NCBI GenBank assembly: GCA_041659265.1 | Contig: JBAZYP010000001.1 | Location: 192,817-256,816, forward strand | Source of the DNA: Candidatus Pacearchaeota archaeon | GTDB lineage: Archaea; Nanobdellota; Nanobdellia; Pacearchaeales; GW2011-AR1 | Length of the DNA: 64,000 nucleotides | Reading direction: 5' to 3' | Shown here: one piece after another, positions 24,732 through 47,394 of the stretch | Position numbering within the stretch: position 1 is the stretch's first letter | Layout of the letters: every line of letters starts with the position of its first letter | The notes under the pieces: model-generated | What the model saw: the letters and a program-made list of their open reading frames with translations, nothing else | Told to the model about the DNA's origin: nothing | The model's database searches: none | Translations under genes and position numbers: made by a program

Positions 24732-25508
24732 ATGGATAAATTAACAAAATTATGGGATCCAAAAAAAGGAGTTATGAAGATAGCTGGACTTATGTCTGGG
24801 AGTGGAAGTAATTTAGTAAAAATAATTGAACATGAACAAAAATTAAAAGATGAAAGAGGATTTTCACCTTATCATGTTGCTGTAATTTTTTCAGATAATC
24901 CTAAGAGTAATGCAGTAAAAATCGGTTCTGATTTTGCTTTACCTGTATTTACTTTTGATTTAGAAGCTTATTGCAGAAAAATTCAAGCTGATGTAAAGGA
25001 TATGAAAGCAAGAGAAGATTATGAAAAAAATGTTATAAATGTAATAAATCAATTTGAATGTCCTGTTTTTGCATATGCTGGTTATATGAGGAAAGCAACA
25101 GAATTGTTTGTTAATTCTGCTATTGGTGTAAACATTCATCCTGCTGATCTTTCAATTGTAGATAAAAAAGGTAAAAGAGAATATACTGGAGATAAAGCTG
25201 TGTTAAAAGCGTTAAAAGCAGGAGAAAAAGAAATAAGATCAACAACTCACTTAATAACCTCTAAAGTTGATAACGGGCCTTTATTAATGGTTTCAAGGCC
25301 TGTTAAAATAGACTATCCTATTTCTGATGATATAATAATAATGGATATGATGGCAAAACATTATCAAAATTCATTAAAAACAACTGGTGATTGGGAAATT
25401 TTTCCAAAAACACTTGAGTATATTGCTGAAGGAAGATATGCCAAAGACATTAAGGGTAGATTATATTTTGATGAAGTTCCAATTTTTAATGGAGTTAGAT
25501 TAGATTAA
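24732..25508 (+). CDS. purN: Formyltransferase family protein (PurN-like GAR transformylase)
   Basis: 'IAGLMSGSGSNL', 'VNIHPADL', 'STTHLITSKVDNGPLL'. Confidence 0.6.
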   Translation: MDKLTKLWDPKKGVMKIAGLMSGSGSNLVKIIEHEQKLKDERGFSPYHVAVIFSDNPKSNAVKIGSDFALPVFTFDLEAYCRKIQADVKDMKAREDYEKNVINVINQFECPVFAYAGYMRKATELFVNSAIGVNIHPADLSIVDKKGKREYTGDKAVLKALKAGEKEIRSTTHLITSKVDNGPLLMVSRPVKIDYPISDDIIIMDMMAKHYQNSLKTTGDWEIFPKTLEYIAEGRYAKDIKGRLYFDEVPIFNGVRLD

Positions 25509-25509
25509 A

Positions 25510-26655
25510 ATGACAACCTATGAATCTTCTGGAGTTAATATTAAATACGGGGATAGTGTATCTGAAATCCTTTATAATGCATCAAAAGCTACTTGGGATA
25601 TTAGAAAATTTGTTCTTGGTGAAGTAATTTCTCCATTTGATTCTTTTTCTGGATTAAGATATATTGATGTTTCTAATCTTCCTAATGGAACTGCATTATA
25701 TAATGGATATGATGGAATTGGAAGTAAAACTGAAATAGCTGAAAGAACAAAGAATCATAGGTATGCTGCATTTGATTTGCTTGCAATGGTTTGTGATGAT
25801 GCTGTTGTTAAGGGATTTGAACCTGTTATTGTTGGTAGTGATCTTCAGGTAAAATCTTTAACTAGAAAAGATGGAAAACCTTTTTTAGATGAAGTTAATC
25901 AGTTGGCAGAAGGATATGTTAATGCTGCTAAAATGGCTCAGGTTGTTATATTAAATGGAGAAACAGCAGAATTACCTACTCGGGTTAAAGGTTATGGAGA
26001 ATTTAATTATAATTGGTCAGCAGGTGTAATTGGATTTGGAAATAAAGAAAGATTATTTACAGGTTTTGAAATTAAAGAAGGAGATTATTTAATAGGATTA
26101 TATGAACATGGATTTAGATCAAATGGAATTAGTTTATTAAGAAAAATAATGGAAGAAACAAAAGGAAAAAATTGGCATAAAAAGAGAACAAAATTCGAAT
26201 TAAAAGAAACTTATGGTGAATTATTAAATACCCCTTCAACAATTTATTCAACTGCAATTGTTGATTTGTTCGGAGGATATAATTTAGAAAGAAATCCTAG
26301 AGCAGAAATTCATGGTGTTGTTAATATTACTGGTGGTGGAATTCCTGGTAAACTTGGAAGAGTATTAAAACCAAGTGGAATGGGTGCAATAATTGATACT
26401 CCATGGGAAATTCGTGATATAACTAGGGAAATAATAGATTTAGGAAAAATTAAATCAAAAGAAGCGAATAAAACTTGGTGTATGAATAATGGAATGATTG
26501 TTATAACACCTGAACCTGATAGGGTAATTGATATTATTCTTGAAAATGGGATAAATTCAAAAAAAATTGGTAGGGTAGTTAAAGAACAGGGAATAAAATT
26601 AGCTAATATTTTAACAGATTCTAAGAAGAAACCGTATTTTGTTTTTGAAGCATAA
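25510..26655 (+). CDS. purM: AIR synthase-like protein (PurM family)
   Basis: 'YESSGVNIKYGD', 'GYDGIGSKTEIA', 'DLLAMVCDDAVVKGFEP', 'NITGGGIPGK'. It starts 2 nt after the purN-like stop. Confidence 0.7.
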   Translation: MTTYESSGVNIKYGDSVSEILYNASKATWDIRKFVLGEVISPFDSFSGLRYIDVSNLPNGTALYNGYDGIGSKTEIAERTKNHRYAAFDLLAMVCDDAVVKGFEPVIVGSDLQVKSLTRKDGKPFLDEVNQLAEGYVNAAKMAQVVILNGETAELPTRVKGYGEFNYNWSAGVIGFGNKERLFTGFEIKEGDYLIGLYEHGFRSNGISLLRKIMEETKGKNWHKKRTKFELKETYGELLNTPSTIYSTAIVDLFGGYNLERNPRAEIHGVVNITGGGIPGKLGRVLKPSGMGAIIDTPWEIRDITREIIDLGKIKSKEANKTWCMNNGMIVITPEPDRVIDIILENGINSKKIGRVVKEQGIKLANILTDSKKKPYFVFEA

Positions 26656-27158: not shown

Positions 27159-30023
27159 ATGGTAGAAATTCCTGTTATTAATGTAGATTTAAATGTAGAT
27201 AAGTTTAAACCAGAGAATCTTGTTTGGGGTGATAAATATAATGCAAAGAAGGATAAGAAGAAAATCTATAAGATTTTAGCTTATCTAGCTATTATTGCTG
27301 CATTAATTATATTTTTTAGATTTGCTCTTTTAGCTTATTTGTATATTGCTAATTTACCAAAAATAAATAGTTATGATGCAAATATAGAAAGGATCGCTTT
27401 AAGCGATGATGGAAAACAAGTTTATATTAAATTAACGGGTGGAAACTCTAAAGAGATTGAATCTATTAAATTTATATTTAGAACAAATGAATCTGAATAT
27501 TTTTATGAAACAAGAGATGGAATTGGAGAGATATCTTATGAACAAACGAATTCATTCTTAAGTTATTTTGCTCATCCTGAATATGAAGGAAGTTATGATT
27601 ATTCTATTAATGCAATAGATATTGGTTTAGATAATTTTAAAGGAATAATAAAAGTTGAAGTTTCAATAAAATATAAGGATCAAAATACTGGAGAAGTTAA
27701 GGAAACAAAAACAATTGATAGTTCTAAAAAATCAGATATTAATGTTGTAAGAAGCGGAGGATATAGTGGAGGAGGCGGGGGCTCTGGAAGTAATGGCGGA
27801 GGATCAGGTGGTGGAAGTGGAAGTTCAGGAGGAGGAAGTGGAAATAATCAGGATAATAATAACAATAGTAGTAGTAATCCTATTTGTAGTTCGAATAATG
27901 ATTGTAATGATAATGTAATCTGTACTAATGATTTATGCATTTCTGGAACAAGGTGTGAACATAATCCTCAGGATAATCTTTGTGTACAAAATGAAAAATG
28001 TAATCCCGTATATGGATGTGAATATTTTGAAAATAATTCATTATTTATTGGATATGATTCATTAACTGGATATAGAATTGAAAAAGTTAATTGGAGTTCT
28101 TTAATTAATGTTATTGAATATGATAATGGCAGTTTAAAAAAAATAGGAACGAGTAATGGCTATGATTCTTCAGCGTTGTCTATTCAAAAAATAAGTTATG
28201 GTTTTGGAGGATATATGGAGTTTAGTGTAAATGAAACAAATACAAAAAAGAAAATAGGTTTTGGATATGGTAGCAATAGTACTAGCGATAGTGATCTTAA
28301 ATTTGCAATTGAATTGAACTCTAGTGGAAATATTTGGATTTGGGCTACTGTTTCTAATGACGCAAGACAACAATATGATCTAGGAATTAATTATCTAACT
28401 GGAGATAAGTTTAGAATCGCAATTGAACAATATCTTGATAATAATTTTATACCTCAATTTAAGGTAGTTTATTATAAGAATTCAGTTAAAATATTTGAAG
28501 ATAAGGAAATTAATTTTCCTCCAGGGATACATGATTGGTATATAGATAATTCTTTTTTTAGTCCTAATTCTTCAATTGAAAATGTAATTATCTCTTATCC
28601 AGGAAATTGGAAAAATGATAGTATAATTTATTCTTCTCCAAATGCTACAATTTATGGTGATGGAAGTATCAGTAGACCTATTGATTTTAGAACAATAATT
28701 ACCAATAAACTTCCTTTAAAGGATAATTTAACTATTATATTAAGGCAAGGTATTTATTCTTCTCCATTATTTAATTATCAATTGTATCCAAATAGTGGTT
28801 ATTACATAATTCAACCTTATAATAACGAACATATTATTATAAACGGTTCAATAATTATTAATGGAAATAGATTAATAGTTAGGAATCTTGAAATAATTGG
28901 TTTTGCTAACAATTCAAAAAGAGTAACTAATTTATCTGGAAGTAGTTTTCCTTTAGTTAATTTTACAGATGGAATAATAATTTATGGAGATGATGTTAGA
29001 CTTATTAATAATTATGTGCATGATATGAGGCAAGGAATTTCTGCATGGTCTAATAATGAGTATTCAGAGATTTATGGTAATATAATATTTAATAATGGTT
29101 GGGATGCTCCTGATCGGGGACATGGTCATGGATTTTATATTCAAAATGATGATGACATTAAAAGAATTATATCGAATGTTGTTTTTTCAAATCTAGGAGG
29201 TTATTCTATTCATGCATATACTCAGGCTGGAAATTTATCAAATTTATATTTTGAAAAAAATATTATTTTTAGAAATTCAAATCTAATTGGAAGTTGGTAT
29301 GGTGCTCCAGTTACTAATTTAACCATGAAATCAAATTATTTTTATTCTGAACTAGCTTTGGGTTATCAAAAACCCGATTATATTAATGATTTTGGAAATA
29401 TAATAAATAATTATTTTAATGGAGTAAGTATTAGATATTTTCAGAATTTAAGTTTTTATAATAATACTATGTTTAATAGAGCAGATAGCGATTCATTATC
29501 TTATATTTGTTATATGGAGCCTTGTTTTTTTAATAATAATATTGATTATAATTTATATTATAAAAATAGTACTGGTAATCCTTTACATATAGAGGGTTCT
29601 AGTCTAGGTAATTGGTTTAATTTGTCTTCTTGGCAGTCTGTAACTGGTTATGATATAAATAGCCAAGTTATAAGGAGTTTGCCACAGAATTTAATTATCA
29701 TTGAACCTAATATATATGAAATAGGTCGTGCAAATATTATTATTTATAACTGGCAGAATTTAACTTCTGTAAATATTAATATTTCTAATTTAGGATATTC
29801 TAATGGTGAAAATTATGAAATTAGGGATATACAGAATTATGATGAAATTTTATTAGAAGGTATTTATGATGGAAGTATGATTAATTTGCCTATGTATTTG
29901 ACAAAAACTCAGGGATTTAATGGCGATTTTACAGATTCTTATCATAATATTTCTGGAGGATATTTAACTCCAACACATACTGATTCAAGATTTAATATAT
30001 TTTTAATAAGAAAGAAAATTTAA
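27159..30023 (+). CDS. Third paralogue of the surface-protein family: shared N-terminal cassette with a different payload
   Basis: The first ~210 aa match the 3547 and 7744 products. They are followed by a Gly/Ser hinge, an N/D/C-rich knot (CSSNNDCNDNVICTNDLC), a ~250-aa domain and a distinct beta-helix ('IIINGNRLIVRNLEIIG', 'GHGHGFYIQND'). Confidence 0.8.
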   Translation: MVEIPVINVDLNVDKFKPENLVWGDKYNAKKDKKKIYKILAYLAIIAALIIFFRFALLAYLYIANLPKINSYDANIERIALSDDGKQVYIKLTGGNSKEIESIKFIFRTNESEYFYETRDGIGEISYEQTNSFLSYFAHPEYEGSYDYSINAIDIGLDNFKGIIKVEVSIKYKDQNTGEVKETKTIDSSKKSDINVVRSGGYSGGGGGSGSNGGGSGGGSGSSGGGSGNNQDNNNNSSSNPICSSNNDCNDNVICTNDLCISGTRCEHNPQDNLCVQNEKCNPVYGCEYFENNSLFIGYDSLTGYRIEKVNWSSLINVIEYDNGSLKKIGTSNGYDSSALSIQKISYGFGGYMEFSVNETNTKKKIGFGYGSNSTSDSDLKFAIELNSSGNIWIWATVSNDARQQYDLGINYLTGDKFRIAIEQYLDNNFIPQFKVVYYKNSVKIFEDKEINFPPGIHDWYIDNSFFSPNSSIENVIISYPGNWKNDSIIYSSPNATIYGDGSISRPIDFRTIITNKLPLKDNLTIILRQGIYSSPLFNYQLYPNSGYYIIQPYNNEHIIINGSIIINGNRLIVRNLEIIGFANNSKRVTNLSGSSFPLVNFTDGIIIYGDDVRLINNYVHDMRQGISAWSNNEYSEIYGNIIFNNGWDAPDRGHGHGFYIQNDDDIKRIISNVVFSNLGGYSIHAYTQAGNLSNLYFEKNIIFRNSNLIGSWYGAPVTNLTMKSNYFYSELALGYQKPDYINDFGNIINNYFNGVSIRYFQNLSFYNNTMFNRADSDSLSYICYMEPCFFNNNIDYNLYYKNSTGNPLHIEGSSLGNWFNLSSWQSVTGYDINSQVIRSLPQNLIIIEPNIYEIGRANIIIYNWQNLTSVNINISNLGYSNGENYEIRDIQNYDEILLEGIYDGSMINLPMYLTKTQGFNGDFTDSYHNISGGYLTPTHTDSRFNIFLIRKKI

Positions 30024-32997: not shown

Positions 32998-33303
32998 TTA
33001 TTCAAGAAGTTTTGCTTCTAGTGTTTTTGCTAGAATTTCATCAAAAGGCATTATATCTTGAATTTCTTGATGGTAGCAGGAGGAGTCTAATTCGCATGAT
33101 TGTCTATCGTAATGTTTTTTGCAATTATGATTTGGAAGAGGGCCTCCTGCAAATTCATCATGATTAATTATACCAAGAATTGGCAAATTTTGATTATCTA
33201 TAATAAACCATTTACCTTCTATTTTTTCATTATCATCGATTTTTTCACAGGAATAATTAATTTTTATTAGATATTTCATTTTATTGATTTTAGATACCAA
33301 CAA
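32998..33303 (-). CDS. Hypothetical Cys/His-containing small protein (last gene of the sugar operon)
   Basis: A 101-aa ORF that overlaps the upstream epimerase gene by 28 nt. It contains 'HNCKKHYDRQSCELDSSCYH'. Confidence 0.4.
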   Translation of the reverse strand: MLVSKINKMKYLIKINYSCEKIDDNEKIEGKWFIIDNQNLPILGIINHDEFAGGPLPNHNCKKHYDRQSCELDSSCYHQEIQDIMPFDEILAKTLEAKLLE

Positions 33304-34199
33304 TAGGTTTTATCTAAACCTTCCTCCATATTTACTTTTGGGACCCATCCTAATATTTCTTTAGCTTTATTATTATCAAGGCAACTCTTTTTTTGTTCTC
33401 CTTTTTTTATTGGTTCGTATTTAGGATCAAATTCATTTTTAAAATATCTATTTAATCTTGAGAAAATTTCTATAATATCTGTTTCTTTACCAGTACCAAT
33501 ATTATAGGTATCACTTTTATTATCTTTTAAGGCTAGTAAGTTTGCATAAGCAACATCTTTTACATAAACAAAATCTCTTGTTTGAATTCCTCCAAATATT
33601 ATTGGAGTTTTTCCTAATATCATATTATTTAAAAATATTGATATAACTCCTGCTTCACCATGGGGATTTTGTCTTGGTCCATAGACGTTTGAATATCTTA
33701 AAGCAGTATATTTAAGTCCATAAGTTTTATTATAAAAATTAAGATATTTTTCTATAGCTAATTTAGCACAACCATAAGGAGAAACTGGATTTTCTTTATG
33801 ATCTTCTTTTGTTGGAAGTTCTTTTGTATCTCCGTAAATAGCTCCACCTGTTGAAGAGAATATTAAATGTTTAATATCATTTTTTCTTGAAAGTTCAAGC
33901 AGGTTTAATGTTGATAAAATATTTATATTTGCATCTTTAATTGGATCTTCAACTGATTTTCTTATATCTATTTGAGCTGCTAGATGGTAAACAATATCTG
34001 GTTTAACTTGTTCAAAAATATTAGAAACAGATTCGTGATTTGAAAGATCTATATTATGGAATTTTGCTTTAGGATTAATATTTTCTAATTTTCCTGTTGA
34101 AAGATTATCAATTATATGAACTTCTTCATTTTTTTTAATAAGCAAATCTGAAAGATGACTTCCGATGAATCCTGCTCCACCTGTAATAAGAATTTTCAT
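33276..34199 (-). CDS. NAD-dependent sugar epimerase/dehydratase (GalE-like)
   Basis: 'MKILITGGAGFIGSHL', 'YGCAKLAIEKY' (the YxxxK catalytic motif) and 'SNVYGPRQ'. Confidence 0.8.
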   Translation of the reverse strand: MKILITGGAGFIGSHLSDLLIKKNEEVHIIDNLSTGKLENINPKAKFHNIDLSNHESVSNIFEQVKPDIVYHLAAQIDIRKSVEDPIKDANINILSTLNLLELSRKNDIKHLIFSSTGGAIYGDTKELPTKEDHKENPVSPYGCAKLAIEKYLNFYNKTYGLKYTALRYSNVYGPRQNPHGEAGVISIFLNNMILGKTPIIFGGIQTRDFVYVKDVAYANLLALKDNKSDTYNIGTGKETDIIEIFSRLNRYFKNEFDPKYEPIKKGEQKKSCLDNNKAKEILGWVPKVNMEEGLDKTYCWYLKSIK

Positions 34200-35275
34200 T
34201 TTATTCTCCTTATGTTTTTTATAAATTCAGATGTTCTTGGTGGGCAACCTGGAATATTAATTTTCTTGGATTTATAAGAGCAATTACCAAAATTTATTAT
34301 TTCAAAATTATTCTCATTATTTTTTCCAATATTTAATTTAAGGTTATTTAATAGATTAGGATCTATTTTTTTTGTTTTTTTTAAAGATAGATATAATGCA
34401 CCAATACAATTACTGCAAGATTTATTGTTTATAATAGTTACTTTAAATTCTCTTTCTAAGAATTTTAAACCCGGCATATCTTTTTTAAAACTTATTTTAA
34501 TGTCTTTAACCCTTTCTCCAATAATTTTTATTTTATTTTTATTAATTAATTTAAGATGTTCTATTTTTTTTGGAGATATTCTCATAATTCTTGCGGATAT
34601 ATAATCTAGAGAGAATATATCCTTTGATGCAAGAATTATATTAGCTCTTTTTGGTTCATAAAGTTCATTTCCTATTATTCCATCAATTATTCCATAAACA
34701 TTATTTATTGAATTACTTAGATCATAAACTGCTTTAGATAAACCAATTTCATGGAATCTTTTTTTATCTTTATCTTTTAATAGTCCTTTTAAATTTTTAA
34801 TAGAACAGGAGATTGTACTAACATAATTTGTTTTTAATTTAGCAATACTTATTACAATATCAAAGATAAATACTTCTTCAGGCAGTTCAATTGAATTAAG
34901 TATTTTTCCATTTATTTTTATTTTTTTATATTTTGATTTTTTAAAGTCTATCATTTTAATATTCAATTTTTTACATTCATCAAAAATTCCTGTTTTTTTA
35001 TAGGCATCTATTGTATCAATATTTACACTTGAAGATTCTCCAACAACTAATTCTTTTGTTATTGGAATTAATAATTTAATAATGCATCTAAAAAATATCG
35101 GATTAGTAGTTTTTGCTTGATTCGATGAGAATATTCCTGTGCAATTTGGTTTTAATAGGACTTTTTTATTATGTATTGAATTTAAAATTCCAGAACTTTG
35201 TAAAATATTTTTTACTTTTGGTAAAAGCTCTTTTTCTTTATAATTTTCATGTTTTATTATCGAAACAGTTTTCAT
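34196..35275 (-). CDS. DUF362-like protein
   Basis: 'VLLKPNC' near the N-terminus and the overall length and pattern are reminiscent of DUF362. There is a C-terminal Cys cluster ('CSNCIGALY', 'GNCSYK', 'GCPP'). The call is from memory only. Confidence 0.45.
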   Translation of the reverse strand: MKTVSIIKHENYKEKELLPKVKNILQSSGILNSIHNKKVLLKPNCTGIFSSNQAKTTNPIFFRCIIKLLIPITKELVVGESSSVNIDTIDAYKKTGIFDECKKLNIKMIDFKKSKYKKIKINGKILNSIELPEEVFIFDIVISIAKLKTNYVSTISCSIKNLKGLLKDKDKKRFHEIGLSKAVYDLSNSINNVYGIIDGIIGNELYEPKRANIILASKDIFSLDYISARIMRISPKKIEHLKLINKNKIKIIGERVKDIKISFKKDMPGLKFLEREFKVTIINNKSCSNCIGALYLSLKKTKKIDPNLLNNLKLNIGKNNENNFEIINFGNCSYKSKKINIPGCPPRTSEFIKNIRRIK

Positions 35276-35276
35276 T

Positions 35277-36314
35277 TTAATTTAATAATCTCCTAGCTTG
35301 AATATAAGCTCCAATTAAATTAGGATTTTCTTGAGTTATCTCTTTTGAAGATTTTATATTTATAGAGGTTTTTTCTTCAGATAATCCCCCAGATATGCCA
35401 TTTTTAAATAATTTATAAGAATCCATAATTTCTCCTGAAAGTATGATTTCAAAATCTTTTTTATATGGTTTTAATTCTTCGTTTGCTTTTGCTATTGAAT
35501 AACCTAAAAAATTTCCCATTAAATGATACGCTATTTTAGCTGAAGATTTATCCCTAGCTAAAGAGGAAATTTCTTTTGCATCTTTTTTTTCACCTGTAAA
35601 CATTTCATATAGATTTGAAACTCCTCTTGCTGAAACTAAAGAACCTATTTTATAATCTTTTGAACCATTTTCAAGAACTTTTTTAATACTTTTTTCAATT
35701 GTTATTTTTTTTATATATGAATCTATTTTATCTAATGGGATTGAGAGATTTAATCCTAAATCATTTAACAAAGGATTATCTTCAGAATTAAAAATATGAT
35801 TTTTATTAAATCTTATTCTATTTAAGATAGTACCTTCTTCATCAATCACTGAACTACCTAAACCTGAACCTAGAACTAAATATAACAATGGTTTTTTTGT
35901 ATAATTAAAGATACCTAACCCCCCACAATCTGCATCGTTATCAATTGAAGTATTAGAAATACCGATACCTTTGAAAATTTCTGGAATATTTTTTCCAATA
36001 AATGAACCTAAAACTGTTGATCTATAAACTGAATTATCTGTTGCAATTAATCCTGCTAAACCAATACCTGCAACCAAAATCTCTTTATTTTTAGTAAATT
36101 CTAAAACTCTTTTTTCAAGATCTTCGACAGCATCTTTTTCAGCTAATGAATTATAATCATGTTTCCATGAATATTTATCAGTTATATTTCCATTTAAATC
36201 GAATAAACCCGCTTTAATCGCAGTACCCCCCATATCAAGCGCTAGTATTTTTTGTTCCATATTCATCCTCTTTTGAAAAACCCATTGATAATGCAAAAAC
36301 TCCGAGTATTCCAA
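35277..36314 (-). CDS. ROK/BadF-type sugar kinase
   Basis: 'ILALDMGGTAIKAGLFD', 'GIGLAGL', 'NDADCGGLG'. The true start is probably Met17 or Met19 (36266 or 36260), because the listed 5' end overlaps the upstream gene by 80 nt. Confidence 0.65.
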   Translation of the reverse strand: MEYSEFLHYQWVFQKRMNMEQKILALDMGGTAIKAGLFDLNGNITDKYSWKHDYNSLAEKDAVEDLEKRVLEFTKNKEILVAGIGLAGLIATDNSVYRSTVLGSFIGKNIPEIFKGIGISNTSIDNDADCGGLGIFNYTKKPLLYLVLGSGLGSSVIDEEGTILNRIRFNKNHIFNSEDNPLLNDLGLNLSIPLDKIDSYIKKITIEKSIKKVLENGSKDYKIGSLVSARGVSNLYEMFTGEKKDAKEISSLARDKSSAKIAYHLMGNFLGYSIAKANEELKPYKKDFEIILSGEIMDSYKLFKNGISGGLSEEKTSINIKSSKEITQENPNLIGAYIQARRLLN

Positions 36315-36834
36315 GAAATATATTAGATAAATAATCTGTATCTCTTGGAGGTTCTTTTATAACTATTCCTTTAGGAAGTCTATTATTGAAATATTCTTTT
36401 ATATTGTCTTTTTGTTTTTTTATTAAACCTATTTCATATTGCCAATTCTTTTTTTGATAAATTAGGTTGTTATTAATAAAATTCATTTCTTGGATAATTG
36501 ATTCATCTTCAGATAATTCTTGAGAATCAAATATTTCAATAGCTTTTTCAAGATGTGAACGTGCTTTTTCTATTTCCTGTTTTTCTGGTGGACAAGGTAT
36601 TACCATCTCATTAACATAACAAAGTGAATTATCTGATAAATAATAAATGGATCTATTCATTTCTTTTAATGTTTCTTCAGCTGGAATTATATATTCAATT
36701 AATGGATTTTTTTCTTGAAGATTTTTTATTTTTTTATTTCTATTTGTATTGAATGTTATTGGAGAAATTCCCCAATATAATCCTGTAAGAATTAAAGATA
36801 CTCCTGCAATTTTGAATATTTTTTTTTCTAGCAT
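36235..36834 (-). CDS. Hypothetical bitopic membrane protein
   Basis: TM helices at both the N- and C-terminus. It is embedded in the operon, 3 nt after the upstream stop. Confidence 0.45.
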   Translation of the reverse strand: MLEKKIFKIAGVSLILTGLYWGISPITFNTNRNKKIKNLQEKNPLIEYIIPAEETLKEMNRSIYYLSDNSLCYVNEMVIPCPPEKQEIEKARSHLEKAIEIFDSQELSEDESIIQEMNFINNNLIYQKKNWQYEIGLIKKQKDNIKEYFNNRLPKGIVIKEPPRDTDYLSNIFLGILGVFALSMGFSKEDEYGTKNTSA

Positions 36835-36837
36835 TTT

Positions 36838-37929
36838 TTATTTTGAATAAAAGTTTTCTATTAATAATGGACAAAGGCTTTGACATTTATTGCATCCTGC
36901 ATTACTTGATTCTGGATTGCAACTTCTTTTATGATTTCTTTCATGAGTTATTTTTCTATCCATTTCTTTAAGATAATCTAATCTGCACATATCTCCTGCA
37001 TGAACGCTAGTTAAAGTTGAAATGATTCCTTGTTCAGTATCAGCTAAAGTCGGAAAACCTACATGTTCTCTTGGTGGAATAGTTGTTATTTTACCTACAT
37101 TATACATGGCCGCAAATGCTGCTCCACTTGCTGAAGCATATTGATCACAATTATTGTTTACTTCTGTAACAATGGGGCCTAACATTTGGAATGGGACATA
37201 TGAACCATATTCTTCTCTTAGTCTAATTATTCCTGGGCCTATATCTGAAAGTGGTTGATGACTCATTGGTTCAACAATTGCTTGCATACCTATTTCATCA
37301 GCTATTTTATATAATCTCATTTGTTCAGAAAGTTCCCATAGGTGAGTTTTATCATAGGCTTCTGTTACTCCATTTGGTCTGAATGTAGAACCTATATGCA
37401 TAGTAACATTATATTCTTTGAATAAATTGAACATGTCATCTAGTATTGGTAGATAAGGACTATTTACATTATTTTTCATCATATAATTTAATAATACTCC
37501 GCCCTGTCTACTTGTTGTTAATATGTCTCTTTTTCCAATTTTATCTAGATCTGATAATCTTAGTGGAACAAGATTCATAGTCATATAATCAATTCCACCT
37601 AAAACTGAATCTTGTATTTCTTTGAAAAGTTTATCTGGAGTAACTTCTCCATTGTTTTCAACTGAAACCAGAATCGGTGCAACTTTTCCAAATGCAATAT
37701 TTGGGTAATTATCAATTCCATATCTCCAAAGTGGATAAGGAAATCTTTTTGTACTCAGGTCAATTATTGTATGGACTCCAAGTCTAGCTCCAATTGATAT
37801 TTTTTCTTTTTCATTTTCTATTTGTTCTTCTGAATTAGCACCTATAATTAGATTTATTTTTGTTTCTAAATCTTTTCCAACACCAATTCTAACTTGGTTC
37901 ATTTTGTTTCCTATTGTTATAATATCCAT
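36838..37929 (-). CDS. Divergent ThiC/BzaF-superfamily (radical-SAM-type) enzyme
   Basis: It is colinear with the ThiC blocks. NANIGNS matches 'NLIIGANS', DLSTGG matches 'IDLSTKR' and GVDFMTIHAG matches 'GIDYMTMNL'. GIVSRGGS matches 'TTSRQGG', GDGLRPG matches 'GSTFRPNG' and EGPGHVP matches 'EPMSHQP'. 'PFQMLGPIVTE', 'PREHVGFP' and a C-terminal 'CNKCQSLC' are also present. Confidence 0.7.
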   Translation of the reverse strand: MDIITIGNKMNQVRIGVGKDLETKINLIIGANSEEQIENEKEKISIGARLGVHTIIDLSTKRFPYPLWRYGIDNYPNIAFGKVAPILVSVENNGEVTPDKLFKEIQDSVLGGIDYMTMNLVPLRLSDLDKIGKRDILTTSRQGGVLLNYMMKNNVNSPYLPILDDMFNLFKEYNVTMHIGSTFRPNGVTEAYDKTHLWELSEQMRLYKIADEIGMQAIVEPMSHQPLSDIGPGIIRLREEYGSYVPFQMLGPIVTEVNNNCDQYASASGAAFAAMYNVGKITTIPPREHVGFPTLADTEQGIISTLTSVHAGDMCRLDYLKEMDRKITHERNHKRSCNPESSNAGCNKCQSLCPLLIENFYSK

Positions 37930-37932
37930 TTT

Positions 37933-39225
37933 TTATTTTCCATTTTTCATTGATTGAATATAAGGAGATAAAAATGAGCAAAGATAGCCGTCAAATATAG
38001 CTCCTGCTCCAGTTATGTTTCCTTTTCTTTTATTAGGGGGAAGATATGTTGCAGTAATACTTGTGGTTCTTTTAGAGTCTTTTTGATTTCCAAAAACAGC
38101 ATTATACTCCATGGAGTTATTAACATGAATTTTATCGTCATAATATTGATTCAATTCTTGCATATTTTTTACATGCTCTCCATGTTCTATATAATAAGTA
38201 GTTGCATAACATGCAAGTTTTACTAATTTTTTGATTTCACCTTTAAATTCAAGGTTAATACTTGTTCCAAGATAGAGTTTTATTCCAGCATGAGAATGAA
38301 CAACAACTAATCCCTCAAAATTCATATCTTCTAGTTTTTCTGTTCTTGATTTGTTTTCATTGCACATTTTAAGACCTTGATGCAACTGGTCTTCTTCAGC
38401 CTCATTTATTGAAAGAATATCTGCTCTTCTTGCAACATCGAAATATCCATTTAATTTAGGAAATTCATTATTAGTAATATATTTTGAAAAAGAGTTTGTT
38501 CCAATAAATATTCCTGCATTAGGATTTTTAGATTTTATATAATCGATTAATGAATGATAATCTTTTGGTTCTCCTTTATTTAATCCTCCAATTGCAACTA
38601 AAGTGCCCTCATCATCCGGAATATGGATATTAAATTTATCATTTAATTTAAGATTTTTTAATTCTCTTCCTTTTTTATCCGATAACATTAATTTGTACTT
38701 TCCATTTTCTAAGCATAATGTACTTGGTTTATAGTCATTAGGAACCGAATGTCTAAATAAATCTTCTAAATTTTTTTCTTTAATAAACTCTTCAATTGAA
38801 TTAGGTCTTGAACCACAATAAATTGTTCTTGCATTTCCAAATTCTTTATATGCATGATAACCTGCTCTAGCTGAAATTGCTGGACTTCCTCCTAATTCAG
38901 TTTTAACAACATGGCTATTTGATAAGTTTAAATCCGTTCGTGGTCCATTTCTAAAATTTTTTACTTCATCTTGAATAATTTTACCATCTAAAGAAAGCTC
39001 AATATCAGAATTTAGTCCTTTTTCAATAATTTCTTTAAAAGTTTTAATATTATTTTCATTAATATGTCCTCTTTTCAAATATTCTTGAGTTATATTATTT
39101 AACTCTTGATCAGTTACTTCAATTTTATAATCCATTGTAGCTTCTGTAATCCATGCAACAATTGGATTATGAAACATATTTTCTTCCATTAAGGTTTGTT
39201 CAAGACCTTTATGAATATTTATCAT
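37933..39225 (-). CDS. ADP-dependent sugar kinase-like protein (ribokinase superfamily)
   Basis: 'ELGGSPAISARAGY' resembles GGNAGIMAN, 'LSINEAEEDQL' resembles the NExE motif, and 'ITGAGAIFDGY' resembles the GxGD anion hole. Confidence 0.5.
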   Translation of the reverse strand: MINIHKGLEQTLMEENMFHNPIVAWITEATMDYKIEVTDQELNNITQEYLKRGHINENNIKTFKEIIEKGLNSDIELSLDGKIIQDEVKNFRNGPRTDLNLSNSHVVKTELGGSPAISARAGYHAYKEFGNARTIYCGSRPNSIEEFIKEKNLEDLFRHSVPNDYKPSTLCLENGKYKLMLSDKKGRELKNLKLNDKFNIHIPDDEGTLVAIGGLNKGEPKDYHSLIDYIKSKNPNAGIFIGTNSFSKYITNNEFPKLNGYFDVARRADILSINEAEEDQLHQGLKMCNENKSRTEKLEDMNFEGLVVVHSHAGIKLYLGTSINLEFKGEIKKLVKLACYATTYYIEHGEHVKNMQELNQYYDDKIHVNNSMEYNAVFGNQKDSKRTTSITATYLPPNKRKGNITGAGAIFDGYLCSFLSPYIQSMKNGK

Positions 39226-40643
39226 AATAATTCCTCCAATCTTTTTTGTAATTTTTCTCTTAAACCGGGTTCTATTTTATTTAATTCATTAAAGACTTCT
39301 TCTAATTTTTTTTGAGCTTTTGATTCGTTTCCTTTAATCCAGTTTAAATTTAGTGTAAGACTATTTTCATTACTTGATCCTCTGATAAATAGTCCATATT
39401 CATTATTATCAATCCTTATTCCATCATCATTTGGATAAGATGAATATGAATTAATTTTTGATAATTTATTAACTAATTCTGCTGAGTTATTTTCTGTATC
39501 AACTCTAATTTCAGGATAAAATCCTCTAATTTCTGAACCCATTTCTTTAATTTTTTCTCTTAATGTTTTATTTTCATTTTTTAATTTTTGACTAAGATGA
39601 ATGAATTCGAAGGTATTATAGACTCCATCATCAATTCCATCAGGTCCAAAATTATGTAAGGAAATTTCAGAACCTGGAATTAAATTTTCTTTACATATTG
39701 GAATAATATTATTTCTTCCTCTTTTTCTTTCAATTACTTCAATACCTCTTTTATTAAGATAGTCTTTAATAATCGAACTTACACAATATTCTGTTACAAA
39801 TTTATCACATCCAGAAAATTCAGCTCTTAAAGCTGAAATAATAGGTGGAGGAACCAGATAGTCATCAATTGCTAAACCAAATCTATCTCCATCCCCATCT
39901 ACAATTGCTATAAAATCATGTTCTAAAATATCCTTTATAGATTCAGATAACTTTTTGAAATTATCTGGATTTGATGGATCTGGTGAACCGGAAGTTAATC
40001 TAAAAAATGGATTAGGAGTTTCTCTAAATGAATAATATTTAACTCCTTTTCTTGATGCTAATTCTTTAAATATTTCAAACGAGGTTCCTTGTAATGCATC
40101 ATATATTATTTTTGAACCAGATTCAATTACTCCTATTTTTTTATCTAATCTATCGATATAATCTTCCTTAAGCAATCTTTCTGCATATATCACCTTTGAT
40201 CCATTTCTAATTTCATTCATTAAATGAGCTAGTTTTGGTTTATTAGATAAAGAATTAAAAATAAGTTTTATTCCATTAAATTCAGGTCTTTGATGAGAAG
40301 CAGTAATCATTGCTCCAGATATTCCTAATCTTTCCCTTTCAATATCAAACATTGGAGTAGTATTATTATATCCTGCATAAATAACATTAATACCTTTTTT
40401 GGTAAGTTCTTCAGTAAGTTCATCTATTATAATTGGAGTATTTATTCTTCCATCTCCTGAAAGCATGAAATATTTTTCATTTCTTTCTAATAATTTATTA
40501 GCAATGTTATTTCCAATAAAACTAAATGATCCCTTAGGAATATTTTTTCCTCTAGAATCTAATTGATGATAACCATTATCTAATTTTGATATCTTTTCAT
40601 ATAATTTAGCAAGTTTATCGAATTCAAATGGATTGTATTGCAT
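39222..40643 (-). CDS. Phosphohexomutase (PGM/PMM family)
   Basis: Active-site loop 'AMITASHQRPEFNGIKL' and metal loop 'VDGDGDRFG'. It is the first gene of the operon. Confidence 0.8.
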   Translation of the reverse strand: MQYNPFEFDKLAKLYEKISKLDNGYHQLDSRGKNIPKGSFSFIGNNIANKLLERNEKYFMLSGDGRINTPIIIDELTEELTKKGINVIYAGYNNTTPMFDIERERLGISGAMITASHQRPEFNGIKLIFNSLSNKPKLAHLMNEIRNGSKVIYAERLLKEDYIDRLDKKIGVIESGSKIIYDALQGTSFEIFKELASRKGVKYYSFRETPNPFFRLTSGSPDPSNPDNFKKLSESIKDILEHDFIAIVDGDGDRFGLAIDDYLVPPPIISALRAEFSGCDKFVTEYCVSSIIKDYLNKRGIEVIERKRGRNNIIPICKENLIPGSEISLHNFGPDGIDDGVYNTFEFIHLSQKLKNENKTLREKIKEMGSEIRGFYPEIRVDTENNSAELVNKLSKINSYSSYPNDDGIRIDNNEYGLFIRGSSNENSLTLNLNWIKGNESKAQKKLEEVFNELNKIEPGLREKLQKRLEELL

Positions 40644-41234: not shown

Positions 41235-42236
41235 ATGAAACGTAGGATAATAAAACAAGGCCATAACACGCTAACCATAACCTTGCCCTCAGAGTGGTCA
41301 AAAAAACTAAATCTGCAAGCAGGGGATGAAGTTGACTTATTAGAGGAATCTGGTACACTTGTCATAAATGGGAAGCAGAATAATGGTTTTAAATCAACTA
41401 CTTTAGATATTACTGGTTTTTCTGTACCTATGCTTTGGAGATTTTTTCAATCTGCTTATAGGGAAGGTTATGATGAAATAAGAATAAAATATGATCCAAA
41501 TGTTACTGAATATGAAGGGGTCTATAATTATTATGCAACTCATTTTGATTTTTCAAGAATAGGTGGAAATTTTACAAAAAAATTACCTGCTATTGAAATG
41601 TTAACTGATTTAGTCAATAGATTTATTGGCATGGAGATAATTGATCATGGTGAAGGATATTGTGTGATAAGAGAAATGGGAGAAGTTTCAGCAAGAGAAT
41701 TTGATAATTCATTACGAAGGATTTTCTTATTATTGATTGATCATTTTGATAAAGTTATTAGTGTTATTAAGAATAATAGGATCAATGATATGATGATTTG
41801 TAAAACAATTTATGCTATGGATATAAATGTTGATAGATTTATTGATTATTGTTGTAGAATAAATAATAAAATTAAAGATTCGAGTTTTCAAAAGAATAAA
41901 CCAGTTATGTTTTCTACATTATTTTTAATGGAATTAATGGGTGATGAATTCAAGTATATAGGTACTCATATTGCAAAATCCACAAAAAAAATTGATGAAA
42001 TAGTCCCTTTTATAGAGACTGTTAAAGAACATTTTGAAATGTATTATCATTTATTTTATAAGTTTAATAGAGAGAATGTAATTAAATTTGGATTAAATGA
42101 TTATAAGATATATAATGATCATTTTAAATGGAAAGAATCTAAGAATAAAGATGCTCAAAGTATTAGAAGACATTTTATGCAGATATCCAAATTCATATTC
42201 TGTTTAATGGAACTCAGGATTGAAATGGAGTTTTAA
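41235..42236 (+). CDS. AbrB/SpoVT-domain plus PhoU-like transcriptional regulator
   Basis: The N-terminus 'MKRRIIKQGHNTLTITLPSEWSKKLNLQAGDEVDL' is an AbrB-type swapped hairpin. The helical C-terminal ~200 aa resembles archaeal PhoU-like regulators. Confidence 0.65.
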   Translation: MKRRIIKQGHNTLTITLPSEWSKKLNLQAGDEVDLLEESGTLVINGKQNNGFKSTTLDITGFSVPMLWRFFQSAYREGYDEIRIKYDPNVTEYEGVYNYYATHFDFSRIGGNFTKKLPAIEMLTDLVNRFIGMEIIDHGEGYCVIREMGEVSAREFDNSLRRIFLLLIDHFDKVISVIKNNRINDMMICKTIYAMDINVDRFIDYCCRINNKIKDSSFQKNKPVMFSTLFLMELMGDEFKYIGTHIAKSTKKIDEIVPFIETVKEHFEMYYHLFYKFNRENVIKFGLNDYKIYNDHFKWKESKNKDAQSIRRHFMQISKFIFCLMELRIEMEF

Positions 42237-46420: not shown

Positions 46421-47335
46421 ATGAAAATTAAGTTAAAAAAAGGTAAACAAAGAGAATTAATTCTTTTAGCTAAAAATGATAAAAACTGGAAAGAATTTGC
46501 AAAGTTAGTTAATATTTCTGAAAAATATTTATGTAACGATTTAAAGAATGAAAAAATATTAATTTCAGAAATGCTATATTTGAATCTTTGTAAAATTTCA
46601 AATAAAAATTTTGATGAATTTATTATTGAAAGATTAGATAATAATTGGGGAAAATCAAAAGGAGGAAAAATCTCTAGAGGAAATACTAAAGATTTTAAAG
46701 AGCCAAAAGAGTCTTTAGAATTAGCTGAATTAATAGGAATAATTCTTGGCGATGGTCATGTTGAAAAATTAAAGATCGGTTCAAAAATAAGATGTTATTC
46801 CATTGTTGTTACTGGTGATTCTAGACATGATAAAAAGTATTTAATAAAATATGTTAATAATCTATTTAAAAAATTATTTAATGAAAATGGGAGAATTCTT
46901 TATTCTAAGGATAAAAATAGCATCTATATTAAATTACATGGTAAGAAAATTGTAGATTTTATAGAAAGTAAAGGTGTTTTTGGAGGTAATAAAAAAAGAA
47001 ATAATCAGGGTATACCTAAATGGATTCTTATAAATGATTCTTATTTAAAAGCAACTTTACGTGGTTTAATTGATACTGATGGATGTATATATTATATTTC
47101 TAAAAATAATAGAAATTTAAGAATATCGTTTACGAGTTATATTCCTAATTTAATGAATGATGTAAGAAATTCATTTTTAAAATTAGGTTTTAATCCTTCT
47201 GAAATTATAAGATGTAAAGATATAACCATTAGTAGAAAAGAAGATATTAAAAAATACTTGAAAGAAATCGGTTTTTCAAATGATAAACATTTAAAAAGAT
47301 ATCAAAATTTAGTTCAATATGCCCCTATCGTCTAG
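46421..47335 (+). CDS. Free-standing double-motif LAGLIDADG homing endonuclease
   Basis: Motifs 'LAELIGIILGDGHV' and 'LRGLIDTDGCIY'. The last four codons (APIV) and the TAG stop lie inside tRNA-Glu. Confidence 0.85.
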   Translation: MKIKLKKGKQRELILLAKNDKNWKEFAKLVNISEKYLCNDLKNEKILISEMLYLNLCKISNKNFDEFIIERLDNNWGKSKGGKISRGNTKDFKEPKESLELAELIGIILGDGHVEKLKIGSKIRCYSIVVTGDSRHDKKYLIKYVNNLFKKLFNENGRILYSKDKNSIYIKLHGKKIVDFIESKGVFGGNKKRNNQGIPKWILINDSYLKATLRGLIDTDGCIYYISKNNRNLRISFTSYIPNLMNDVRNSFLKLGFNPSEIIRCKDITISRKEDIKKYLKEIGFSNDKHLKRYQNLVQYAPIV

Positions 47336-47394
47336 CTGGCCAAGGATTTAGCCTTCTCAAGGCTGCGACCCGGGTTCGAATCCCGGTGGGGGCA
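47321..47394 (+). tRNA. tRNA-Glu (anticodon CUC)
   Basis: Hand fold: acceptor GCCCCTA/TGGGGGC, D stem GTCT/GGAT (two G-U pairs), anticodon arm TAGCC-TTCTCAA-GGCTG, T arm CCGGG-TTCGAAT-CCCGG, discriminator A. Confidence 0.85.

Follow-up and report, generated by a model that had tools for sequence, protein, structure and literature searches.

Two chemistries are known to us for the ThiC scaffold. ThiC itself, the hydroxymethylpyrimidine phosphate (HMP-P) synthase, catalyses a radical cascade that has been described as the most complex in enzymology, and the only other chemistry of which we know, that of the Bza proteins, also starts from 5-aminoimidazole ribotide (AIR). Here, we describe a ThiC-like protein, P0001, that is encoded in a stretch of 64,000 nucleotides (the window; contig JBAZYP010000001.1, positions 192,817 to 256,816, GenBank assembly GCA_041659265.1; G+C content ~26%) of a Candidatus Pacearchaeota archaeon. 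It is well supported as a distinct type, a ThiC-type radical S-adenosylmethionine (SAM) scaffold with a presumably new specificity. We regard it as probable, if by no means certain, that P0001 is an active non-canonical radical SAM enzyme of the ThiC type that is neither an HMP-P synthase nor of the BzaA/B/F type, and that it represents a distinct family confined to DPANN archaea and candidate phyla radiation (CPR) bacteria. Its function very probably differs from that of ThiC, and the substrate, instead of AIR, could be another phosphorylated sugar or nucleotide.

A ThiC fold with changed substrate residues

The open reading frame (ORF) at 36838-37929 on the minus strand encodes 363 amino acids, exactly as given in the preliminary description of this DNA, and is indeed shorter than ThiC, whose short form has ~420-435 residues. 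The difference of ~60 residues to the short form includes the N-terminal ~40 residues of ThiC, and the match to the Pfam model PF01964 (ThiC_Rad_SAM) begins only at model position 43. With 183.7 bits at a cutoff of 25 this match places P0001 in the ThiC superfamily. The ThiC equivalog models NF009895, TIGR00190, and NF006763 gave 185.2, 168.8, and 128.9 bits, respectively, at cutoffs of 410, 460, and 650, so that each score lies under half of its cutoff. The BzaB model TIGR04386 gave 136.3 bits at a cutoff of 700, while a bona fide short ThiC reaches 578 bits on the same model. The AlphaFold (AF2) model of P0001 (pLDDT 94, pTM 0.92) shows the ThiC TIM-barrel with the C-terminal cluster loop, the barrel being joined to the Cys motif by a single helix. 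In Foldseek searches the top matches of this model were the ThiC structures 4s28 and 3epo (TMq 0.84, root mean square deviation 2.4 A, 24-26% identity, E 1e-25), and the next folds, IspG (TM ~0.5), aminomutases, and KDO8PS, followed well behind. P0001 keeps the ThiC fold but fails all curated ThiC and BzaB cutoffs.

The preliminary description had aligned the protein by hand with ThiC, block by block, and had quoted four strings as altered signatures. These strings are all present, GSTFRPNG at residues 180-187, EPMSHQP at 220-226, NNNCDQY at 258-264, and CNKCQSLC at 346-353. When ThiC proteins of solved structure are aligned by HMMER, GDGLRPG is paired with GSTFRPN, EGPGHVP with EPMSHQP, APGYDH with NNNCDQ, and the cluster motif with CNKCQSLC, and in addition PKEHLGLP of crystallised ThiC with PREHVGFP of P0001. 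Because these alignments reproduce the hand alignment, the latter was not offset, and the residues of catalysis and substrate binding are replaced and not conserved.

The roles of these residues have been derived for the Arabidopsis thaliana enzyme (AtThiC) from crystal structures (PMC4389238) and mutagenesis (PMC11117688). In the following, AtThiC numbering is used, with the prefix Cc for residues of CcThiC, and the residue comparison covers 53 members of the target family, 30 sequences of an unnamed sister clade, the "4-Cys / CxRC" clade, and 28 canonical ThiC/Bza-like sequences. All three groups have the three cluster Cys in common, the pair His426/His490 that binds the extra metal chelating both the amino and the carboxylate group of SAM, Glu489 (SAM ribose), Leu259 (adenine stacking), Arg343, Arg386 (SAM carboxylate and substrate phosphate), and Glu422 (substrate 2'-OH). 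Correspondingly, R184, E220, H224, E288, H289, L58, C346, C349, and C353 of P0001 are kept in 53/53 members. The target family thus resembles ThiC (PDB 3EPM/3EPO, 4S25-4S29) in its fold, in the C-terminal CX2CX3C loop of the short form, in the His pair of the second metal, in the Glu at the SAM ribose, and in Arg386, Leu259, and Glu422.

It differs from ThiC, with which it shares 24-31% identity, at Asn228, His322, Gly344, Asp383, Tyr449, CcCys474, and Met572 and in an extra invariant Cys. Asn228 (3'-OH) has become Ile (I28), His322 (phosphate) Asn (N119), Gly344 Gln (Q142), CcCys474 (the H-atom relay) Thr (T282), and Met572 (the adenine sandwich) Lys (K348), each in 53/53 members. Asp383, which protonates N3 of the AIR imidazole, is replaced by Ser in 48 members, including P0001 (S181), and by Ala in the other five, and Leu385 by Phe in 52 of the 53. 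The position of Tyr449, which stacks on the amino group, is variable (Cys in P0001), and Tyr286 (phosphate) has been lost in the archaeal clade and retained in the bacterial clade. Because these substitutions are invariant or nearly invariant across 53 members that are only 44-70% identical to P0001, they result from neither chance nor decay. The AtThiC variants D383A and N228D and the CcThiC variant C474S consume AIR but yield no HMP-P (PMC11117688). P0001 has Ser, Ile, and Thr at those sites and should therefore be unable to produce HMP-P by the known route. Further invariants that are specific to the family include the new basic residues Arg62, Lys280, and Lys348, and the remodelling is widespread at the catalytic face of the barrel. 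Because of these three basic residues there is a hint that the substrate may be more anionic than AIR. Judged from the residues, the radical generator and the SAM apparatus appear intact, with the exchange of Met572 for Lys as the exception at the SAM site, and the substrate pocket appears to have been rebuilt.

Concerning the cluster, the CX2CX3C spacing had been taken for a changed Fe-S motif. This did not hold. CX2CX4C typifies the long-form ThiC of proteobacteria and plants, and CX2CX3C is common among proteins with canonical GDGLRP and EGPGHxP blocks, one of which (P0065, CTMCGQYC) clears the ThiC equivalog cutoff with 626 to 410 bits. Because such proteins carry it, CX2CX3C is no alteration, and being normal in bona fide short ThiC it was ruled out as diagnostic of the target family. 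Two traits of this region had been missed, a fourth Cys (C337) nine residues upstream of the motif and K348 in place of Met572. C337, C346, K348, C349, and C353 are invariant in 53/53 members, C337 thus being an added Cys of the whole family; canonical ThiC has Asp, Glu, or Lys at the position of C337 and Met at that of K348.

A separate branch in DPANN and CPR

Among 5.8 billion proteins 63 relatives were found, nearly all full-length ones having 346-393 residues. They originate from metagenome-assembled genomes of Woesearchaeota, Nanoarchaeota, Paceibacterota/Parcubacteria, and Shapirobacteria, the closest relatives of P0001 being those of Woesearchaeota and Nanoarchaeota. The family comprises ~60 clusters from DPANN archaea and CPR bacteria, and its genes were found at six loci in 185,579 species-representative genomes and at 22 in a metagenome collection; a scan of viral contigs revealed zero copies. 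In an exhaustive HMMER scan of 1.84 billion (1.84e9) cluster representatives the score dropped from 407 bits, for the representative of the family itself, to 142 bits for the next full-length match, which is 31% identical. The mean column identity is 62% when 20 and 51 members are aligned, and the motifs GSTFRP, E-x-M-S-H-Q-P, and S-C-N-P-x-S-x3-G-C-N-K-C-x3-C-P-L are conserved throughout. Two members sit on contigs of 6.6 kb (L011) and 5.6 kb (L013) that had been binned as "Methanosarcinales" and "Planctomycetota", respectively. Both bin labels are probably wrong and are suspect because the "Planctomycetota" contig bears a typical CPR cassette (see below).

A neighbour-joining (distance) tree was built from 164 full-length proteins of the superfamily, and 108 of these were bootstrapped with 200 replicates. 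The target family is monophyletic in 100% of the replicates and falls outside bona fide ThiC, which answers the question of whether it might cluster within it. It divides into an archaeal subclade A (100%) and a bacterial subclade B (97.5%) and groups with the 4-Cys / CxRC clade in 95% of the replicates, the canonical ThiC/Bza group being separate in 77.5%. Members of the family have on average 27% identity to the canonical group, compared to 45% within the latter. The comparison with the Bza proteins is based on the BzaB hidden Markov model, the tree being one without verified BzaA or BzaF sequences. On this basis BzaA, BzaB, and BzaF share the superfamily with the target and are a precedent for a new radical rearrangement, but they are close to ThiC and use AIR, and the target has no cobamide genes or cobalamin riboswitch nearby. 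The preliminary description had proposed a third functional type. The alignment and the tree support a divergent type other than ThiC. The count of three falls short, because the superfamily holds several further divergent unnamed clades. From the sequence comparisons, the target family is one of several unexplored branches outside canonical ThiC/Bza.

Like the target, the 4-Cys / CxRC clade (for instance P0088, P0091, P0109, and P0070; 350-420 residues) has an additional upstream Cys and, at position 572, a basic residue, and it shares the change of Asp383 to Ser, Thr, or Ala and of Leu385 to Phe and the loss of CcCys474. However, at ~28% identity, it keeps His322, Gly344, and often Asn228, and has Arg and not Lys at position 572. 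Because the target does not share its His322, Gly344, and Arg572, the target family is a branch separate from this clade. The partners are also different, comprising a ~355-residue protein with three transmembrane (TM) helices, an iron-containing alcohol dehydrogenase (Fe-ADH), and an AAA ATPase, often in defence islands or mobile DNA.

Gene neighbourhoods

The ThiC-like gene is part of an operon of seven tightly packed co-directional genes (Table 1). Most junctions are between -4 and +3 nucleotides; the exception is the ROK-like ORF, which, listed from a TTG start, overlaps the gene of the 199-residue protein by 80 nucleotides. The gene of the PGM/PMM-like protein overlaps the next gene by four nucleotides, and its product has archaeal GlmM as best NCBIfam match (111 bits at a cutoff of 439). 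In two related loci (L001 and L002) it is fused to the second gene of the operon, resulting in a 911-residue protein (L001 2475-5210). The 430-residue product of this second gene has no match in Pfam, NCBIfam, or the sequences of the PDB, neither as single sequence nor as profile, and a word-indexed homologue search gave four proteins only. Its AF2 model (pLDDT 88) is best matched in Foldseek by archaeal ADP-dependent phosphofructokinase/glucokinase structures (3drw, 5od2; E 1e-12, TM 0.55-0.60). It keeps GG-S-P-A and N-E-x-E-like motifs, and the canonical GxGD reads GxGA (TGAGA). On this sequence it may not be a conventional kinase.

Scans of family libraries gave no match for the 199-residue protein, which has one predicted TM helix (168-186) and an N-terminus that is hydrophobic as judged by eye. 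A weak BcrAD_BadFG match of the ROK-like protein raised the idea of an ATP-dependent Fe-S activator, which was ruled out, the protein having a single Cys and no cluster motif. The DUF362 protein shares its Pfam clan with the nickel-pincer enzyme LarA (PMC11770544). The last gene overlaps the DUF362 gene by four nucleotides, and its product scores 199 bits on the GalE model at a cutoff of 262.

Table 1. Positions of the ThiC-like gene, its motifs, and associated features. Positions refer to the window unless a locus (L) is given.
Feature	Position	Strand	Remarks
ThiC-like non-canonical radical SAM enzyme (probable), P0001	36838..37929	-	363 aa, ATG start
Cluster region C337-x8-C346-N-K348-C349-x3-C353	36871..36921	-	three ThiC-type [4Fe-4S] Cys and fourth Cys
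T282...E288-H289	37063..37086	-	CcCys474 to Thr; Glu489 (ribose of SAM) and His490 (metal ligand) kept
E220-P-M-S-H224-Q-P block (ThiC EGPGHVP)	37252..37272	-	Glu422 (2'-OH contact) and metal ligand His426 kept
G180-S-T-F-R184-P block (ThiC GDGLRP)	37375..37392	-	Asp383 to Ser; Arg386 kept
PGM/PMM-family phosphosugar mutase-like, operon gene 1	39222..40643	-	473 aa; Pfam PGM_PMM I/II/III
ADP-dependent-sugar-kinase-like, ribokinase superfamily, operon gene 2	37933..39225	-	430 aa; AF2 and Foldseek
199-aa protein, operon gene 4	36235..36834	-	terminal hydrophobic segments; 3 nt downstream of ThiC-like gene
ROK-like (ASKHA) sugar-kinase-like, operon gene 5	35277..36314	-	Pfam ROK 37 bits
DUF362 protein, operon gene 6	34196..35275	-	359 aa; Pfam PF04015 117.7 bits
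NAD-dependent sugar-nucleotide epimerase/dehydratase, GalE-like, operon gene 7	33276..34199	-	Pfam Epimerase 229 bits
AbrB/SpoVT-domain (PhoU-like) putative regulator	41235..42236	+	divergent, upstream of operon; Pfam MazE_antitoxin/AbrB
PurN-like	24732-25508	+	75 bits, cutoff 150
PurM-like AIR synthase	25510-26655	+	174 bits, cutoff 236
Clade-B cassettes	L003 7362-10494; also L006, L007, L013, L030-L032, L034-L036		
Sister-clade ThiC-like (359/347 aa) and ~355-aa 3-TM two-gene module	L039 8001-10122; L037 655-2773; L040 6062-8200		L039 is a defence island
Sister-clade member by Fe-ADH and 472-aa TM protein	L041 484-4192		conjugative element (relaxase, T4CP, Fic)
Sister-clade 734-aa fusion (unassigned C-terminal domain)	L042 7001-10892		by PD-(D/E)xK, NERD-UvrD helicase, AAA ATPase

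ORF clustering over 37 loci revealed that the neighbourhoods of clades A and B are clade-specific and sharply different. In clade A (DPANN), the commonest neighbour is the ROK-like gene (10 loci), followed by the PGM/ADPK-like genes (eight), DUF362 (seven), and the AbrB-type regulator (seven); DUF362, ROK, and ThiC-like genes co-occur in seven loci. Homologues of the regulator flank the cluster in L001, L002, L008, L010, and L015, with a faint PhoU match in L008. In clade B (CPR), a gene for a Tmk-like kinase is located directly upstream (13 loci) and one for a ~310-residue Pol-beta nucleotidyltransferase (NTase) directly downstream (12 loci), often overlapping, which accounts for every flanked locus once identical contigs are merged. 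A NUDIX hydrolase is usually also present, and the cassettes are often found near toxin-antitoxin, Fic, or integrase genes. The kinase has a Tmk fold, its best PDB matches all being thymidylate kinases (E ~6e-17), and it stays below the cutoff for dTMP kinases (55-65 against 83 bits). The NTase retains the GS...DxD catalytic motif; its profile has no significant match in the PDB, the top one being a cGAS-like receptor (E 0.34), and no relationship is detectable to the 3-TM partner of the sister clade. Both neighbourhoods might have in common a phosphotransfer by which ribosyl or hexosyl compounds in phosphorylated form are produced or consumed.

Genes for thiamine biosynthesis (thiD/thiE/thiG) are found neither in the window nor in ~30 related neighbourhoods, and the latter also contain no cob or cobamide genes and no purine genes. 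Rfam searches of the window and of eight clade-B loci detected neither a thiamine pyrophosphate (TPP) nor a cobalamin riboswitch. Here again the family differs from ThiC, as it has no thiamine genes or TPP riboswitch nearby.

The sister clade has surroundings of its own. Its member P0218 (359 residues) is encoded in a defence island together with PDC-M49A (820 bits), a PbeC/DndD-like ATPase, an LmuA-like protein, a type II restriction enzyme and methylase, GmrSD, HD-CE, and an ORC/Cdc6-like protein. The P0218 gene overlaps that of a ~352-residue partner with three C-terminal TM helices, and this partner is conserved beside P0091 at a low level (20% identity, E 1e-18). The pair of ThiC-like and 3-TM protein is a candidate for a new conflict system. 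Such surroundings suggest a role in conflict systems for part of the wider 4-Cys radiation, which establishes nothing for the target family.

Which reaction may be catalysed

If P0001 is an active radical SAM enzyme with a new specificity, as we think probable, the reaction could proceed as follows. The reduced cluster would cleave SAM held on the metal of His224 and His289, and the resulting 5'-deoxyadenosyl radical would take a hydrogen atom from a phosphorylated sugar or nucleotide. This substrate would be anchored by Arg184 and Ser140, its probably more anionic character compared to AIR being accommodated by Lys280, Lys348, and Arg62. Glu220 may aid chemistry at a vicinal hydroxyl group, as in diol dehydratase, ribonucleotide reductase (RNR), or viperin, and Cys337 of the loop may replace the lost Cys at position 282 as hydrogen-atom donor or relay. 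Co-transcribed partners might supply the substrate: in DPANN, the PGM/PMM-like mutase together with the 430-residue ADP-dependent-kinase-like protein and the ROK-like kinase; in CPR, the Tmk-like kinase, the Pol-beta NTase, and the NUDIX hydrolase.

Several points weigh against this explanation. Full ligation of the cluster through the fourth invariant Cys is conceivable, and the exchange of Met572 for Lys alters the adenine sandwich, so that SAM cleavage is not guaranteed. The gene context names no single substrate because the neighbours of the two clades differ entirely. Tiny genomes can preserve the neighbourhood even of genes that are functionally unlinked, and the neighbouring 430-residue "kinase" does not have the canonical Asp of GxGD. 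The AF2 model is a ligand-free monomer, in which the geometry of the pocket and the position of Cys337 are predicted only. In addition, AIR is possibly available in the organism because of the adjacent PurN- and PurM-like genes ~10 kb from the ThiC-like gene.

A more far-reaching proposal, which we hold to be doubtful, is that the family transforms a sugar bisphosphate or a nucleoside phosphate in a radical SAM reaction of a new kind, for instance in a dehydration or rearrangement similar to those of viperin, diol dehydratase, or RNR, and that the ThiC scaffold has radiated together with the 4-Cys clade. If this were true, the reaction would yield a pentose phosphate in deoxy or rearranged form, an analogue of a nucleotide, or else a cofactor precursor peculiar to DPANN/CPR symbionts, and the scaffold would stand for a set of nucleotide- and sugar-modifying enzymes omitted by current radical SAM catalogues.

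It seems unlikely that, instead of serving core metabolism, the enzyme has a role in conflict or signalling, in which radical chemistry on a nucleotide would give a chain terminator against viruses, a signal molecule, or a modified base. The model for such a role is viperin, which pairs with the Tmk-family kinase CMPK2. Viperin and the prokaryotic viperins would be similar to the target in a radical SAM reaction at a nucleotide ribose and in the pairing with a Tmk-family kinase at the clade-B loci, a likeness by analogy only; their fold is unrelated, their motif is CX3CX2C, and the operon of the window contains sugar-phosphate enzymes and not a Tmk-like kinase. The constant flanking of clade B by a divergent kinase of the Tmk fold and by a Pol-beta NTase with an intact catalytic motif, in most cases along with a NUDIX hydrolase, fits a conflict system. 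So do the toxin-antitoxin, Fic, and integrase genes near clade-B loci, the sporadic distribution (6/185,579 species), and the sister-clade members in a defence island, on a conjugative element, and beside NERD-UvrD and PD-(D/E)xK proteins, with their conserved 3-TM partner. However, with its mutase, sugar kinases, and epimerase the clade-A operon of the window has a metabolic look, housekeeping genes such as those of replication factor C (RFC) lie on its flanks, and there are no copies on viral contigs. PADLOC had no match for the ThiC-like protein, the Tmk-like kinase, or the NTase, nor for ROK, DUF362, or the sister-clade pair.

Quite unlikely, too, is the continued use of AIR for a different product, as in the formation of 5-hydroxybenzimidazole by BzaF. 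The only characterised chemistry of the superfamily begins with AIR, the equivalents of Arg386, Ser342, Arg343, and Glu422 are kept, and AIR, the substrate of ThiC and BzaF, is the product of PurM, for which the window has a candidate gene. Yet at least five of ~9 AIR contacts are replaced (Asn228, His322, Gly344, and Asp383, with a variable residue at Tyr449 and the loss of Tyr286 in clade A), neither purine nor cob genes accompany the ~30 related loci, the window and eight clade-B loci show no cobalamin riboswitch, and CPR and DPANN organisms mostly have no de novo purine synthesis.

The additional Cys that is invariant in the cluster loop, together with the exchange of Met572 for Lys, could also mean that the protein is no longer a radical SAM enzyme. 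Either a cluster fully ligated by four Cys would serve redox or Lewis-acid chemistry, as in IspG, the next-best fold after ThiC at a TM of ~0.5, and in Fe-S (de)hydratases, or the protein would be a non-catalytic binding subunit. This is very unlikely given that the residues anchoring SAM in AtThiC (both metal His, Glu489, Arg386, Leu259, Arg343, and Gly230) are invariant. At position 572 the sister clade carries Arg, and stacking on adenine or binding of a substrate anion would still be possible for Lys as well as for Arg. That P0001 is a genuine ThiC made odd by fast DPANN/CPR evolution is hardly credible: public names call relatives ThiC and other window proteins also stay under equivalog cutoffs (GalE 199 to 262, PurM 174 to 236 bits), but the replaced residues are invariant in both archaeal and bacterial members, which points to selection and not drift, D383A, N228D, and C474S variants of ThiC yield no HMP-P, the family is monophyletic at 100% bootstrap outside the canonical clade with 185 to 410 bits, thiD/thiE/thiG genes are absent from the ~30 neighbourhoods, and TPP riboswitches were not detected even at eight bacterial loci.

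Annotation of the family

A description of the target family was not found in the literature, in which defence-related matches were muddied by the word "thick". Comparative DPANN papers list "ThiC" among the thiamine genes without comment. RadicalSAM.org leaves out PF01964 (PMC9477430), and because this main radical SAM resource excludes it, the sequence space of PF01964 is essentially unexplored. Several family members (P0002, P0007, P0012, P0023, P0044, and P0061) are publicly named "phosphomethylpyrimidine synthase ThiC", and relatives that bear a name at all bear that of ThiC. This naming is probably a systematic mis-annotation, and the label would wrongly credit host-dependent DPANN/CPR genomes with the synthesis of the thiamine pyrimidine in metabolic reconstructions. 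A family that keeps the radical generator and has a seemingly rebuilt pocket would offer a concrete, clonable entry to new chemistry.

Other features of the window

The window also carries archaeal genes of replication and translation, which encode the large and small subunits of RFC, FEN1, an archaeal UMP kinase, and phenylalanyl-tRNA synthetase (PheRS). An 869-residue ORF at 20203-22812 (minus strand) comprises an intein splicing domain and a LAGLIDADG homing endonuclease, and a second LAGLIDADG ORF of 304 residues (46421-47335, plus strand) is located just upstream of a tRNA gene (47321-47394), with which it slightly overlaps. Between the Pur-like genes and RFC, the plus strand encodes a predicted surface protein of 954 residues (27159-30023), which has a TM segment at its N-terminus, a long linker rich in Gly and Ser, a stretch rich in Cys, and a repetitive C-terminal region rich in Asn.

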